A stretch of 64,000 bases of DNA, taken from positions 32,001 to 96,000 of IMG/VR virus record IMGVR_UViG_3300045988_120991; one strand, given 5' to 3'. The DNA is from a virus. The position numbers were made by a program, and so were the translations under genes. The notes beneath the pieces are model-generated. The model did no database searches, had not been told where the DNA came from, and was given only the letters and a program-made list of their open reading frames with translations. Positions 30,801 through 61,570 of this stretch are shown here, in pieces (the stretch's first letter is position 1; every line of letters begins with the position of its first letter).

Positions 30801-33800
30801 GAGTCAGAAAATGAGTATGGCAGAACTGTTAATACACTTAGACGTTCAAAGGACAATAATCTAAGAGGCGAAAGTAAATCTTCGTTGATAAGCCCAAGAG
30901 AAGATAGAGAGCGTTTGCTCGACCAAAAGATAGACTTTAAACCATTTTCGCAATCTAGAAAGCCGATTGATTGGGATGAATATAAAAATGACCTTCAAAG
31001 AAGATTGCAAGAAAATGAAGAGGCTTTAGCCGAGCAGCAAAAAATCGTTGATGAAGCAAGAAAGAATCTAACGTCTGCTAAGAGAGCGGTTTCATCTTCA
31101 TCTAAAAAAGTCTATAGTGGTTCTGGCGATATAAATGATGAATGGATTGCTAAAGAGGAAGATATATTGAAGTTGGCGACAGAAGATAAAAATTCTGGTC
31201 TAAACGATAAGTCAATAAAACAGTTATCTAAATTAGTAAAAAGCTCATATAGTAAAGATTCTAAAAGTTTCAAAAAGGCGTATGCAACCGCTCAAAAGGA
31301 CTTAGAATCTTTAATGTCAAAAGAGGCGACGGAAGATAATATTGCACAAGTTAAGTCTTTATTAGATTTTATTAATAGTTTGAATAGAGCTGCTGAAAAT
31401 TACACGTCTGCTGCTAAATATGTGGATGAAAAATTTGTTATAAACGAAGAAATTGACAAATCATTATTTGAAAGTGCGTCTAAAAGAGTCAGTGATGCCG
31501 GTGAAATAAAAGTAAAATCTAAGAAATACAAAGGGACAGGACTTCCACAAACTAATGTTAGCAAACTGGTTTCTGGAATTAAAAGAAAAGAGTCTATCGA
31601 GGAGTTTTCCAGTTATAGTTCTGCGTATCAAGAGCATATCAAGTCTTTGCTAGATAGTGCTTTGACTGATTTAAAAGAAACAATGCAGGGCAAAGATACT
31701 TCGGCAAACAGAAAAAAGATACAAAGTATACTTCAATATATTGATAATTTGAAGAGACAGTTTGACCAATTTAAAGAAATAGAACAGAAAATATATGAAG
31801 CATATAATTTTGGTAAAACTAAAAAAGATGTCAAATTTGAAAATCTTTCTTCTGTTGATAATATTATAGAAAATTATAAAACAGGGAAAGAAGTTTTACA
31901 AAGAAAAATCGAAGAGATAGATCAGCAGCTTGCGTATTTAGACCAACAAAAGGGTAATATAAAGCATTATACAGATGAACAAAAAGCCATAGCTAAGCTC
32001 CAACTAGATGCTTCAAATTATTATTCTGGAATATCTAAAGTAAAGCAGCTTGAATATAATTTTAATAATGCGCAAACAGAGCAAGAGAAAGAAAAGTTTG
32101 CACAATTATTGCAATCTGCTAAATCTCAAAATGCTAATGATGCTTCAAAAAATATTGGCAATGTAATAAAATTTATAGAAGAATTAGAGAGTAAATTGTC
32201 TGACAAAAACATATCGGAGCAAGATAGAAATACTCTTTCGTCCGTGTTACAAGAAGCTCAAAGTTTATTTAAAGAGCTAAATGTTGCTAATGTTACTGGG
32301 AAGACACCGTTATTTCAGATGTCTCAGTCTAGATACGAAGACATAATTGCAGACAATAGTGCCGAAGCAGAAAGAATTGCAGAAGCAGAGAAAAAAGCAT
32401 TAGCTAGAAGAGCGAAAGTTGTTGAAAAGCTAAATGATTTTGAAGCAAATTCTCCTGGTGCTGAAGCACTACGTAGAGCTTCTTCGGTAAAATCAGGAGA
32501 AAGCTATAGAAGTAAATCTATTTCTACCCAAATAGACAAAACAAATGCACAATCTGTTTTTAATGAGTCTGAAGAAAAATTGCGTGTATTAGAGAAAGAA
32601 AAAGAGGCACTTCAGGCAGAAAAAGAAAAAGTAGCAGAAAAAAAGAAGTACAATAATTTGTTAATTCAAGAAAAAAAATTAAAAGAAGAAATTGCTGCCG
32701 CAGATAAAGCTGGTGTATCTAGCGAAGAGAAAAAGATCGAATTAACAAAACTACAAGAAAAAATTGCAAAGCAAGAGAAAAAACTTGGAATAAACTTTGA
32801 AGAAGTAAGCCCATCAATGACAAAAGAAAAGGCTTTTGATAAAGCTTCTGAATATGATGCTCAAGAGAAATTACTTCGTAGTCAGGTTAAAGCGCTTGAA
32901 TCAAAAGTGGAAAGTGCGCAAGAGTTAATAAATAGCCTTACTGCTAGAGGGTTTAATTCTGCAAAAGGGGAAGCTGAACTTAGAAGGTTCACTAATGATA
33001 GAGTTGCAGATTTTAGAAGCAGTGATTATTTTAGAACAAAAAAAGATGAAATAAGAGATAAGTATCTTAAGGGTGTATATAAAGAAGACGGTACGCTTGA
33101 TAGCAGTGATAGTCTAGAAGGTAAAATACGAGAACTTGCCGATAAATATTCAAAGGATATAGATAAAATATTCTTTAATATAGCAGATGTAAAAGAAGGC
33201 AACGCGCAAGAATTTCTTAGCGGACTCATTGGAGATCAGACCAGGTTCTCTAATGCTTTTAAGGGCAACAATGATGTTGGGCAGAAGTTTATGGCCGATT
33301 ATGAAGAATTTAAATCTTTCTATTGGGAATTAATTAAAGAAGAAGAAAGTAAGGTCGTAGACGATTATAAGAAGTCTATAAAAGTAGATAAGCATAATGG
33401 GACCGTTTCGTATACTTCTTATGATGGAGATACTATCCAAGAGGTTGTTGTAGATTTAAAGAGTCAAATAATTCAAGGATTAAAGGAACAAATAGAGGCA
33501 GAACTTATGCCGACTCTTTCAGAAAAGACTGGTTTATTAGGAAGAGTTTCCGATTCAAAAAAACAAGCACTAGATTTTGCTGGTCTTAAAGAGTCCGATA
33601 TAAGAAATATAGATGTGGATAGCAAAATAGCTAGTCTTAAGTCTGATATTGAAGGTCTAAAATCAACAAACATATCTGCAAAAGATAGAGATATAGAAGG
33701 CGCAAAACAAAGAGATTTAGAACGTCAAAAAAGTATTATAGAAGAGATAGAAAGTGTAAATAGTAGAATAACATATAATGAAATAGATCAGATTAAGCTT

Positions 33801-57259: not shown

Positions 57260-58729
57260 TTAACCACAGTGGCTATACCCACATGATTTACAAATGTCAC
57301 ATCCGCCTTCGTGCTCAAGCGGTTCTCCACACTCTGGGCATCTCCCGTCATTTTCAGTAACCATCTTAACATCATTAGAGACTCTAGGTTTATCGCATTC
57401 AGCCTCGGAACCTGTGTCATAGGTATCATCAATTTCATCTTGCATCTCCTTCCACATGTCTACAAGAGCATTTCCAATAGCCATAGGACAACAAGAACCT
57501 TTTGATGTGTCGTGCTTTGTAGCTGTTCTTGCCGCGTAGCTTGGGCATACACCGGTTGAATCTAGCTGGTCTTTAATTGTCATGATGTCAACACCGGCTC
57601 TACATAGCAATGATATTGTACGGCTTAAACCAATCATAAAATTGGCACATCCTCCACTGCTTCCTTTGTTGAAATAAACTTCTTGTAAATCACCATTATA
57701 TGGATCAAAGAAGGCCAATACATGAAGACTTCCGCATCCAGTAGTCAGCTTACGCTTTTTACCAACAAGGTCATCGGAACAGTTCATGATTGCACCACGA
57801 GGAATAGATTCTTCTGTCTGAATTTCTTCTTTGTTTTTATCTTCTACAATCAATACACCTTCACGCTTACAGCCAGAACGATAAATTGTAATACCTTTTA
57901 GACCATTCTTCCAAGCGGACATATAAATGTTTTTAACATCATCAATCGTCGCTTCGTTTGGTAGATTTACAGTAGAGCTAATACTTGCGTCAATACCCTT
58001 TTGCCAAGCAGCCTGCATAGCTACACGTTTGTTATAGTCAATTTCGGAAGAATCAACAAACCAATCAGGGAATTTATCGTTGACAGTAAGTCCGTGTTCG
58101 TCTGCATACTTTTGATAAATAGGGGTAAGCACATCATAGTACTGCGTTGTTTCGTGCAGAGATTCTGTCTTACGCCTGTAGCTCTTTGCGAAAATAGGCT
58201 CAATACCACCACTGATTCCAAGCATCGTTGAGATGGTTCCGGTTGGAGCAATGGTTAGAAGTTGACTATTGCGTAGACCATAATTATCAACCATGTTTCT
58301 TGTTAGGGTGTCTGCATTTGCTCTAAAGAATGGGGTATCAATTGTTGCATTTGTATATTTAGGATATATACCCTTTTCACAAGCTAAGTGAGAAGAAACA
58401 TAAATTGCGTGGTTGGCCATTGCCATAGAAATATCACGGCAGTGTTCGATTGCCTCGTCACTATCATAACGTAAATGCATCTTGATGAGCATATCAGCAA
58501 CGCCCATAACTCCTAAGCCAACCTGTCTCCAGTCTCTTACGCTATCTCTTTGCTCTTGTAATGGATGTAGAGGAAGTCCTTCATCTAGAACCTCATTTAA
58601 GTATCTAATACCAATATCTACTGTATCGTAGAAATCATCATACATAAAATTGCCATAATCATCTACAAAGGCAGACAGATTAATTGATGCTAGGAGACAG
58701 CTCCCCCCTGCGGGTAATGGTTCTTCTGC
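57260..58729 (-). CDS. nrdJ: class II (B12-dependent) ribonucleotide reductase NrdJ, exon 2 (489 codons)
   Basis: The reading frame is open upstream of the track's ATG (58645) back to 58729, where it reads AEEPLPAGGSCLLASINLSAFV. This continues the TNPC active-site motif that ends exon 1. The C-terminus has the Zn-ribbon tail CPECGEPLEHEGGCDICKSCGYSHCG typical of NrdJ. Confidence 0.85.
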   Translation of the reverse strand, partial: AEEPLPAGGSCLLASINLSAFVDDYGNFMYDDFYDTVDIGIRYLNEVLDEGLPLHPLQEQRDSVRDWRQVGLGVMGVADMLIKMHLRYDSDEAIEHCRDISMAMANHAIYVSSHLACEKGIYPKYTNATIDTPFFRANADTLTRNMVDNYGLRNSQLLTIAPTGTISTMLGISGGIEPIFAKSYRRKTESLHETTQYYDVLTPIYQKYADEHGLTVNDKFPDWFVDSSEIDYNKRVAMQAAWQKGIDASISSTVNLPNEATIDDVKNIYMSAWKNGLKGITIYRSGCKREGVLIVEDKNKEEIQTEESIPRGAIMNCSDDLVGKKRKLTTGCGSLHVLAFFDPYNGDLQEVYFNKGSSGGCANFMIGLSRTISLLCRAGVDIMTIKDQLDSTGVCPSYAARTATKHDTSKGSCCPMAIGNALVDMWKEMQDEIDDTYDTGSEAECDKPRVSNDVKMVTENDGRCPECGEPLEHEGGCDICKSCGYSHCG

Positions 58730-59623
58730 CTTGGTGAACCATAAACCATAGACTATATCTTATCCCTCAGCATTATCTGTTAGGGTAATCGCACTTTGTA
58801 AATTTTTTTGGAGATTCCACATATTATCACTCATCCATTTTGGCTGGTATTCATACCCAAGATATAATTTGTACATCATTGTATCTACCATATATGGATA
58901 AATTAAATTAATAAACTTTTCATAACTACTTTGACTAACTCTCAGACGATAAAACTTTCCACGTTTAACAATAGATGTTTGTATGTCAAATCTTTTATTA
59001 AACATATCCTTCATTGATTCTATTACATTTAAACTATATCTATCTGTACAAAAATCAATTCTACGATTTTTAATAACACCTTTTGTTCTACCAACAAGAC
59101 AAACATATCCATCACACATATACCAATTAGCAATACCATTTGGTGTAATCCAACTAAGTGCTTCTTTGGATGCAATTCTATTTTTATAATCATCATAGAA
59201 ATGGTGATATTTTTTATTAAAATACGGATGTGCTTTAATTCTTAATGTCCATGATTCTTTGTGATTACATCCGCATCTTTCATGTGCTAGAATATGTTTA
59301 ATGTTTATTTGAAAGTTTGTACAAGATTTAATATCATTTTTAATTTTATCTATAAAGTTTTTATCAACGCTTTTTATTTCAAAAGCTCTTTTAGTTATTC
59401 CTTTATCAATGCAACCGTCTCCAAAAATCAGTCCCGTCAAATATCCTTTTAACTCTGAACTATTCATACATTATAGCCTCCTATAATTTTGTATGTATTA
59501 AATTTACATTAGTCGTTGAACCTTCCTATCTTACATAGGCTTGGCTGCTGATTAACCTTCGTCTTCCAGCAATTCACGATTGATTATTTCTTAAAGTTTC
59601 CTTTAAGCCCTGCACAGATGCTT
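58730..59623 (-). mobile_element. group I intron (894 nt) carrying a LAGLIDADG homing endonuclease ORF
   Basis: Exon 1 ends CCCUGU. An intron internal guide GCAGGG, 10 nt downstream, pairs with it, including the U-G wobble at the splice site (P1). The adjacent UCUGU pairs with the exon 2 start GCAGA (P10). The last intron base is G (58730). Joining the exons restores TNPC|AEEPLP in frame. Confidence 0.8.
58760..59467 (-). CDS. intron-encoded LAGLIDADG homing endonuclease (235 aa)
   Basis: AGGAGG RBS inside the intron. Two LAGLIDADG motifs are present: LTGLIFGDGCI and IANWYMCDGYV. Confidence 0.85.
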   Translation of the reverse strand: MNSSELKGYLTGLIFGDGCIDKGITKRAFEIKSVDKNFIDKIKNDIKSCTNFQINIKHILAHERCGCNHKESWTLRIKAHPYFNKKYHHFYDDYKNRIASKEALSWITPNGIANWYMCDGYVCLVGRTKGVIKNRRIDFCTDRYSLNVIESMKDMFNKRFDIQTSIVKRGKFYRLRVSQSSYEKFINLIYPYMVDTMMYKLYLGYEYQPKWMSDNMWNLQKNLQSAITLTDNAEG

Positions 59624-61570
59624 ACAGGGATTAGTACCAGCATATTCAAAATCTGGGTTATTACTTAGTAAATTATAATTTTCAATGTTATTCCAAAATA
59701 GAATACCTGGTTCTGCCCAGTTCCAATTGTTCTCACATAGCTTATCAAAAATATCTCTTGCTTTTGCAGTCTTTGTGATTGTTTCACCAGTTTCTGGACG
59801 AGTAAAAGACATTACCCAATCGGTATTATCTTCGACCGCTTGCATAAAATCATCTGTTACACGTACAGAGATATTAGCTTTAGTAACACTGTTCTCTTTA
59901 GTCTTGATGTCAATAAAGTCCATTAGGTCTGGATGATGACAATCAAGGCTAATCATTAAAGCTCCTCTGCGGCCATTCTGACCGATCTCCTCAGTTGTCT
60001 GACTGTAGCCCTGCATAAAACTTACAGCTCCACTAGTCTTTTCTGCTTGATTATGGACCTTTGCACCAGCGGGGGCAAGCTTAGAAATGTCGATTCCACA
60101 GCCTCCACCATACGAATATGTTCTTGCTAGCTTCTTACGACTTTCAAAAATAGACTCAATATTATCCTCTGGAGGAGCAATAACATAGCAATTATGAACA
60201 ATAACACCATTTACATTATATGTATGCGTGTCTTCTACAGATAAGTTGTATACTTTGCAGTGGCAATCTTCAGATATGCTAATTGAACTTAGAGCCGCAT
60301 ACTCAAAATCGCCACGTACATCAAGGTTATTTCTTCCATCACTATATTGTTTAGATAATAGTGGATTTAAAAATTTATTAGAAATAGCTACCCCGACACG
60401 AAATTCATATGTATCGGCTTGACGCTCTACAGAATGAATAGGAGATGCGTTAATACCATTCATCCACATTGTATAATATAGCCAATCAATTAATTTACGA
60501 TTTTTTAGCACAATACGAAATGCACCGTGTGTGTCGAGCGTACCATCTGCGTCACATAGTCCGACCATCATTGGAACACAACCAAGATATTCGTTAGGAA
60601 CAAATTTGCCGTCGCATTTTTCTCCAAAATGGTTAACAAACCAAGATGCTATAATTTCACTTTCAAACCTTAAAGCAATAACATTCTGATTGGTTTCACG
60701 ATAAGATGCATGAATACCAAAAACATTTTCACCAATAGACTTACAACGTTCAAATGCATCACGCTCTGTGGTTGCGTTGAATACGATTTGTAGAATAGAT
60801 GGATTTTTATAACCACGGCGTGCCGTTATACTACCATCACCCAACCAACGACCAATAAAATATGCAAAATCATCATCAAATACCCACTCAGCACGTACAG
60901 AATTGCCTCTATGCTGATATGTTGTAGTTCCGCGGTCATTTACAAGCGTATAAATTTGAGCCATTCCGTCTTTTACTTCAACCTTGCTATTGTCTCTAGC
61001 CTTAAATCCATCAAGAGCGGATACAATCTTTGGCGTAAACTTAATCATATGGTGTTGTGCCATCTTAATTTTATCCTGTGCTTTAATTTGCTCAGAACAA
61101 GCAAGTATACGGTCTGCTCGTTTCCAACCGTGGTTTGTCAAAATTTTATGATTCGGAGTACATTTGATTGGTTCCATAAAATTTATACTTTCAAGACAAT
61201 AAATATCTCCAGTATATTCACGACACATAATGTCATTTACACGATGAAACTGTTCATCATGAGATAGCACCATGTCTCCAATAGCAATATCTTCAATGTT
61301 TTTAAATCCGTCAATCGTAAGTACTTTGGAACCAGCCATAAAACAATTTGAGTATGTAACCCTAGTGTCTTTAATACCTCGGTTGCTAAGAATACGACCA
61401 CCAGGAACAAACTTCTTGCTGATAATTGCATTTTTTACTCTCTTGTTGCCGCCGCTTACTCTGTCTAGCCATTCATCAAATGACTCTTCACCCTTACGAT
61501 ATTTTCTCATCCAAATATCAATACCGAGTAGGTTGTCTTTCCCTAGCCACTGTTCTACTGTCATAGGCAT
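59624..61570 (-). CDS. nrdJ: NrdJ exon 1 (264 extein codons) including an in-frame 385-codon intein
   Basis: The N-terminus reads MPMTVEQWLGKDN...FDEWLDRVSGGN...FVPGGRILSNRG...TYSN. After the intein it resumes CYVIAPPEDNIESIF...YGGGCGIDIS...AGTNPC. The track ORF's last residues, KHLCRA, are intron read-through. Confidence 0.85.
60191..61345 (-). mobile_element. intein (385 aa) with LAGLIDADG homing endonuclease domain
   Basis: Starts CFMAGSKVLTIDG (Cys1, Hint N-terminal block) and ends GVIVHN, followed by the +1 Cys (CYVIAPP). The internal motifs FIGRWLGDGSI and MMVGLCDADGTL are LAGLIDADG blocks. Removing it restores the conserved TYSN|CYV RNR sequence. Confidence 0.85.

Follow-up and report, generated by a model that had tools for sequence, protein, structure and literature searches.

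Organisation of the nrdJ locus

The stretch of DNA analysed here, referred to as the window, comprises 64,000 nt (positions 32,001 to 96,000) of the IMG/VR virus record IMGVR_UViG_3300045988_120991, a complete genome of 165,978 bp with terminal repeats. On its minus strand, at 57260-61570, lies nrdJ, the gene of a ribonucleotide reductase (RNR), whose coding sequence is interrupted by an intein of 385 aa and by a group I intron of 894 nt. In all likelihood, this is a class II nrdJ that has been invaded by two independent homing elements, both of which are removed by splicing. All features of the locus are given below in window coordinates and lie on the minus strand.

Exon 1 (61570-59624) has 649 codons, namely 75 of N-extein, 385 of intein and 189 of C-extein. 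The N-extein (61346..61570, residues 1-75) ends in VTYSN, and relatives open with the same MPMTVEQWLG. The intein (60191..61345) runs from CFMAGSK to VIVHN and is followed by the C-extein part of exon 1 (59624..60190, residues 76-264), which has Cys76 as its first residue and TNPC, with Cys264, as its last. The intron, which has an IA-like layout with P7.1 and P7.2 between P7 and P3', occupies 58730..59623. It consists of a ribozyme 5' half (P1, P2, the P3 5' strand, P4-P6a, the P7 5' strand, P7.1 and P7.2; 59468..59629), an open reading frame (ORF) for a 235-aa LAGLIDADG protein (58760..59467) and a ribozyme 3' half (P3', P8, J8/7, P7', P9 and the terminal G; 58730..58793). Exon 2 (57260..58729) holds 489 codons and a stop (residues 265-753), begins with AEEPLPAGGSC, in which the Cys is Cys275, and includes the TSCPD domain. 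It closes with a Cys-rich tail, CPECGEPLEHEGGCDICKSCGYSHCG (57263..57340), which is the zinc-finger type tail of class II RNRs.

The coordinates and codon arithmetic of the original prediction hold on the minus strand, as checked against the ORF listing, by direct reading and by script. Without splicing, the frame that opens at 61570 has 655 codons and ends at 59603 with GTNPC KHLCRA and a stop, which falls within P2, six codons past the 5' end of the intron. Exon 2 does not open with a start codon, and its first ATG comes 28 codons in, past Cys275. Gene callers break this nrdJ into three or four ORFs.

The reconstructed class II reductase

Removal of the intron in silico gives a predicted RNA junction that joins AAUCCCUGU to GCAGAAGAA (in a longer 3' reading, AAUCCCUGU to GCAGAAGAACC), and removal of the intein gives the predicted extein junction peptide VTYSN-CYVIAPPEDNIESIFESR. 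With both elements removed, a protein of 753 aa (264 + 489) results. The RNR barrel domain PF02867 covers it in a single stretch at model positions 1-523 of 523 (E = 3.5e-106), and the NrdJ_Z equivalog TIGR02504 scores 496 bits against a cut-off of 400. The TSCPD domain is also present in the spliced protein. NF006417 aligns to the final residue (66-759 of 759), and the Cys-rich tail is kept in relatives. As judged from these domains, the gene product is a whole NrdJ, the match being far beyond chance. In other words, the mature length and composition proposed for the product of this 4.3-kb locus were confirmed by the script arithmetic, the end-to-end PF02867 match and TIGR02504. The enzyme can be assigned to the class II (B12-type, Thermotoga maritima-like) RNRs and belongs to an integrase-bearing phage of about 166 kb; its dependence on adenosylcobalamin is predicted.

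In an alignment with T. maritima NrdJ (1xje), Cys76, Cys264 and Cys275 correspond to C134, C322 and C333, respectively. In the T. maritima enzyme, these three residues are the redox-active pair and the thiyl-radical cysteine; Cys76 is taken as redox-active and Cys264 as the thiyl-radical cysteine. Since Cys76 and Cys264 align with catalytic cysteines, the intein lies directly before one such residue and the intron directly after the codon of another, as had been proposed.

The group I intron and its endonuclease

The intron is inserted exactly between TGT, the codon of Cys264 in the NPC motif, and GCA, the codon of Ala265. A nucleotide alignment with six intron-less relatives leaves a flush gap of 894 nt at this site, which upholds the predicted insertion point NPC/A (the slash marks the insertion here and below). 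The Rfam model RF00028 matches 59633-59455 with 41.7-41.8 bits and E-values from 6.7e-9 down to about 1e-10. The match covers P1 to P7 only, because a 708-nt ORF parts P7 from P3'. At the Rfam gathering threshold the whole window gave no match, and the intron surfaces only with E-value reporting. A second group I intron was not detectable in the 166-kb genome.

Helices beyond the RF00028 match were placed by reading the sequence. Covariation was then assessed in an alignment of ten homologous same-site introns from which the ORF interior had been taken out, with 3' partners slid by 1-3 columns and 500 shuffles as controls. Standard pairs fill 92.7% of the cells, compared with 29-41% in the slid controls, and changes on both sides occur in 24 pairs, compared with 3-9. 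None of the 500 shuffles reached the observed covariation score. In P3, which belongs to the P3/P7 pseudoknot core, all cells are paired (100%) and four of the seven pairs show compensatory changes. P4 and P7 are invariant, and P6a and P8 again carry compensatory changes.

The elements that would define the splice sites are also present. P1 is formed by exon CCCUGU and intron GCAGGG, with a U·G pair at the 5' splice site in 10/10 homologous introns, and the pair opposite the third base of the Pro codon changes from C-G to A-U jointly with the codon. For P10, the 3' exon GCAGA can pair with UCUGU at intron nt 6-10, directly 5' of the guide (82.5% paired). The P2 loop is GAAA, P3' is UGCGAUU and P7' is UAGUC. 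A terminal G precedes the Ala265 codon in 10/10 introns. On this comparative evidence, the intron is a member of a genuine group I ribozyme family with an IA-like layout. The GGAGG ribosome-binding site of its ORF lies within the conserved P7.2 hairpin, and the last ~35 nt of the ORF overlap P3' and P8.

The P3-P7 core (window 59495-59573, intron nt 50-128) has nucleotide matches of 81-89% at unannotated intergenic spots in other phages, namely SPO1-like Bacillus, Twort-like Staphylococcus, Acinetobacter, Vibrio and Flavobacterium phages. These spots are probably unannotated group I introns.

The intron ORF has two LAGLIDADG motifs, LTGLIFGDGCI and IANWYMCDGYV, both of which end in an acidic residue (FGDGC and MCDGY). 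It scores 82.7 bits with PF03161 (cut-off 25, E = 3.9e-23) and matches PDB 6x1j at 6e-9 and I-SceI at about 1e-7. These similarities identify it as a monomeric I-SceI-like LAGLIDADG homing endonuclease, for which cleavage activity is predicted. Its relatives, 235 in metagenome assemblies and a large protein collection, are 58-94% identical and keep the full length of 235 aa. In all 10 genomic contexts that were fetched, the endonuclease lies in nrdJ at the same NPC/A point, with exons only 44-95% identical to those of the window. A scan of IMG/VR with the intron endonuclease returned no relative.

The intein

The intein reads YSN/CFMAG at its start and VIVHN/CYVIAPP at its end. The intein-less loci L002-L008 and L016 read YSNCYV without a gap. 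By mechanism, the element is placed between Asn75 and Cys76, so that Cys76 is the +1 extein residue. In effect, the notation SNC/Y used in the original prediction was loose, and the insertion point is SN/C. The splicing domain model PF14890 (Intein_splicing) scores 44.7 bits against a cut-off of 35.8. The expected splicing residues are C1, T63-P-N-H66 (the TxxH of block B), H384-N385 and the Cys at +1.

The endonuclease motifs of the intein are FIGRWLGDGSI and MVGLCDADGTL. A family profile matches the endonuclease domain of PI-PfuI with E = 2.4e-6 (residues 148-330), and PI-SceI was matched as well. PF14528 (LAGLIDADG_3) is matched by 13 of the 17 intein relatives. Among 17 family members of 32-58% identity, C1, T63, H66, the GDG of motif 1, the D and G of motif 2, H384 and N385 are invariant or nearly so. 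Allelic inteins, 31-57% identical, occur at the same SN/C in about 60 metagenomic RNR precursors, with Cys1, TxxH, His-Asn and Cys+1 conserved. Both insertions are real, and in line with the prediction the intron carries a LAGLIDADG endonuclease and the intein a probable one; the assignments rest on PF03161 and I-SceI for the intron, and on PF14890 and the PI-PfuI profile match for the intein.

A scan of IMG/VR with the intein found it in only one other record. More distant relatives (22-27% identity, P0193-P0233) are located in C5 DNA methylases, ThyA and DNA polymerase III alpha of other metagenomic contigs.

Empty sites and independent assortment

A survey of homologous phage nrdJ genes for empty sites had been suggested, and such sites were found. 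Twelve related viral loci were compared for the state of each element, and further contexts came from metagenome assemblies. An uninterrupted nrdJ is present in L002-L007 and L009-L011, which have 64-88% protein identity to the window. L012 (96% protein identity) has the same intein without the intron, L016-L026 (of varied identity) have the intron without the intein, and L015 has both elements, as in the window. Flush empty sites are found in close relatives of 78-96% protein identity, and all four states of presence and absence occur among close relatives. The intein and the intron therefore assort independently. A nucleotide search of annotated phages returned only distant nrdJ genes without intron and intein (Clostridioides phages and Bacteroides phage BS-TP1), together with short matches to the intron core.

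The sequences that flank the intron carry a further trace. Compared with the intron-less L012, the window has no mismatches from -202 to -87, 16 mismatches from -86 to -2, 14 from +12 to +45 and none until +102. The upstream tract (59624..59709) thus has its 16 mismatches within 86 nt, and the downstream tract with its 14 lies at 58685..58729. Such a cluster on both sides of the insertion is the signature expected of co-conversion in homing from a diverged donor. The homing-site logic of the original prediction is supported by the empty sites, the independent assortment and this co-conversion tract.

The intein in L012 and L015 is 97-99.7% identical to that of the window. L015 matches the window almost perfectly over a block at 398-2044 that comprises the N-extein, the intein and 267 nt after it, with six differences in ~1650 nt, and the intein itself differs at 4 of 1155 nt. 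Past this block the similarity drops steeply, and the intron endonucleases of L015 and the window share only 89% identity. The pattern indicates recombinational mosaicism inside nrdJ. In L016, positions 1763-1777 read TAT AGT in place of the TAC TCA of the window (61346-61360), a synonymous Tyr-Ser change just 5' of the intein point between otherwise near-identical exteins. This intein-less allele may be a cleavage-resistant homing site.

Proposed origin of the two insertions

The invasion of nrdJ by two homing elements draws on the observed anatomy, family memberships, empty sites, covariation and co-conversion pattern, and a course of events can be proposed for it. The intron would leave the pre-mRNA by self-splicing, with P1 guide pairing, the U·G at the splice site, P10 to line up the 3' exon, and the terminal G. 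The intein would then be excised from a translated precursor of ~1138 aa by means of Cys1, the TxxH block, the His-Asn end and the +1 Cys. Active NrdJ of 753 aa would form only after both splicing steps. In a co-infection, each endonuclease would cut the empty allele, and the element would be copied in by double-strand-break repair. Homing by cutting and repair would account for both the patchy distribution and the co-converted exon flanks. The intron ORF has its ribosome-binding site in the P7.2 hairpin and runs into P3' and P8, so that any given transcript should either serve to make the endonuclease or fold as a ribozyme, but not both at once. Exclusion of this kind is usual in phage introns.

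Several points weigh against this explanation. Splicing at the RNA and protein levels, like the activity of the endonucleases, is predicted from sequence. The RF00028 score of 41.7 bits is lower than the Rfam gathering threshold of 50, and P7.1 is poorly supported, with 59% of its cells paired. The LAGLIDADG_3 score of the window intein, 20.8 bits, is just under the cut-off of 22.5. Additionally, the mismatches that flank the intron could stem from ordinary recombination, and these genes are visibly mosaic in other parts as well.

It had also been suggested that the two splicing reactions are a possible regulatory checkpoint. With such a checkpoint, the phage would time or condition the synthesis of deoxyribonucleotides (dNTPs), for example through a redox trap in the intein or a coupling of splicing to translation. 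The cysteines at intein positions 1 and +1, and the placement of the intron ORF with its ribosome-binding site in P7.2 and its overlap with P3' and P8, agree with this circumstantially. However, nothing in the analysis supports such a role: close relatives do well with one element or with neither, the elements are therefore dispensable, and the pattern is that expected of selfish homing. A checkpoint is accordingly very unlikely. Slightly harder still to credit is the specific form in which maturation of the RNR, the only one of the phage, is conditional on two layers, a redox trap of Cys1 and Cys+1 at a redox-active cysteine and a competition between the ribozyme and endonuclease translation. 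If it were true, selfish elements would have been co-opted to adjust the supply of dNTPs to host conditions or to the choice between lysis and lysogeny.

Alternatively, one or both elements could be decayed relics without splicing or homing activity, in which case nrdJ would be a pseudogene or the endonucleases would be dead passengers. Homing elements often degenerate once fixed, the activity of these two is predicted from their sequences, and the LAGLIDADG match of the intein is weak. Both ORFs are intact, however, and the splicing and endonuclease residues are invariant in the 17 inteins despite identities of 32-58%. Similarly, the intron endonuclease family remains full-length (235 aa) over 58-94% identity, and compensatory changes preserve the ribozyme helices. 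Moreover, the elements are polymorphic and not fixed, which fits ongoing mobility. Decay is rejected as highly improbable.

The least probable alternative, a gene in pieces in which the 894-nt insert is a free-standing endonuclease gene and two NrdJ polypeptides assemble without RNA splicing, has in its favour that phage RNR genes split in this way are known (PMC3653736), as in Aeromonas phage Aeh1, where mobE splits nrdA-a from nrdA-b, and that the Rfam score is below threshold. It is rejected given that a full group I core with covariation surrounds the ORF, the insert sits flush between two codons, translation of exon 1 would run only six codons into the intron before a stop, and exon 2 has no start before one that lies beyond Cys275.

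Genomic setting and other insertions in nrdJ

The interrupted gene belongs to a nucleotide-metabolism block of NT5C, thyX, nrdJ, an unknown gene of 118 aa and dUTPase, which adjoins the int/xis region. The end of thyX and the beginning of nrdJ share 10 nt (window 61561-61570). An integrase gene (PF00589) and an Xis-like gene with an HTH_17 domain are present at 54.6-56.3 kb. With these two genes nearby, the temperate lifestyle that had been proposed for this phage is plausible.

The nrdJ gene is crowded in this phage clade. Jointly, the relatives hold an intein, at least four different introns and a free-standing HNH gene. The nrdJ of L008 is 94% identical to that of the window and lacks both the window intein and the window intron. 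It has another intron at GRR/GALM (L008:4457-5425) with a 268-aa LAGLIDADG_3 ORF that bears an N-terminal HTH. A free-standing HNH_3 endonuclease gene lies between thyX and nrdJ in the same locus (L008:3426-4010), and the same gene is present in L016. Alongside the window-type intron, L016 has a second intron-like insert near nrdJ residue 336 (L016:3455-4396), with a 222-aa GIY-YIG/NUMOD3 ORF. L013 carries an unrelated intron 3 nt downstream of the window site, at NPCA/E (L013:4790-5936). Rfam gave no match at E <= 0.01 for the introns of L008 and L013.

The intron of L013 has a 275-aa GIY-YIG ORF with five in-frame TAG codons, whose frame stays open only under a code with TAG as Gln; the nrdJ exons have no in-frame TAG. 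The window-type endonuclease of L024 is flagged 'with_TAG=Q'. This suggests that L013 and L024 are TAG-recoded phages in which synthesis of the endonuclease depends on a suppressor. In L027 and L028, from other phage lineages, an allelic intein occurs together with a downstream interruption. Furthermore, 22 of 62 precursors with allelic inteins end ~170-220 residues past the intein, around the NPC site, and some of these ends may be contig ends.

Relation to known systems and significance

RNR genes are the most frequently interrupted genes of phages (PMC3653736). In bnrdE/bnrdF of the Bacillus subtilis prophage SPbeta, nrdE contains both an intron and an intein (Lazarevic et al. 1998; Derbyshire & Belfort 1998, 'Lightning strikes twice: intron-intein coincidence'; both as cited in PMC3653736). 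The two cases, which the original prediction also set side by side, have in common that homing elements lie in conserved regions of an RNR gene, in a phage that is temperate (SPbeta) or plausibly so (the window). However, the SPbeta gene is a class Ib nrdE and that of the window belongs to class II. They also have different insertion sites, inteins and intron lineages, and the intron endonuclease of the window is an I-SceI-like LAGLIDADG enzyme. According to reviews, phage group I introns mostly carry GIY-YIG, HNH, PD-(D/E)xK or EDxHD enzymes, and LAGLIDADG is less usual (PMC3984707; PMC8772380).

The nrdJ of Trichodesmium has inteins and group II introns (Liu et al. 2003, as cited in PMC4143802). 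It resembles the window in being a class II RNR gene interrupted at the RNA and protein levels, but it is a cellular, cyanobacterial gene, and its introns belong to group II, not group I. The original prediction knew of no description of this combination for a class II RNR in a temperate gut-type phage. No description of a group I intron together with an intein in a phage nrdJ was found in the literature searched, in which older papers are incompletely covered. The claim has to be narrowed, as a class II RNR gene interrupted at both levels is already described from Trichodesmium, and the arrangement of intein and intron recurs in other metagenomic phage nrdJ genes. With good support, the locus adds one more case to a pattern that goes back to SPbeta.

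The individual elements likewise have known counterparts. The intein shares the Hint splicing domain, and probably the double-motif LAGLIDADG domain, with PI-PfuI (from the RNR of Pyrococcus furiosus, PDB 1dq3) and PI-SceI, although its sequence identity to them is low. The intron endonuclease is, like I-SceI (PDB 1r7m) and 6x1j, a monomeric two-motif LAGLIDADG protein of the same size (235 aa) within a group I intron. I-SceI, however, is mitochondrial and belongs to an rRNA gene, whereas the window enzyme is in a phage protein-coding gene with an unrelated target site. The intron resembles the IA2-type introns of phages (T4 td/nrdB/nrdD, Twort nrdE and SPO1 DNA polymerase) in its location in a nucleotide-metabolism gene beside catalytic residues, its predicted self-splicing, the presence of P7.1/P7.2 and an in-frame stop soon after the 5' splice site. 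It differs from them in its LAGLIDADG-type ORF, which is placed between P7.2 and P3', with its end reaching into P3'/P8.

The understanding of how such elements work is unchanged by this finding. Its main value is as a polymorphic natural system in which all four states are extant. The I-SceI-like family with its 235 relatives and the intein are new and well-defined candidate sources of site-specific endonucleases and splicing domains. The locus also offers a clean natural example of homing-site logic, in which two unrelated parasites, both predicted to be self-splicing, sit at the two codons under the tightest constraint in the gene of an essential enzyme.

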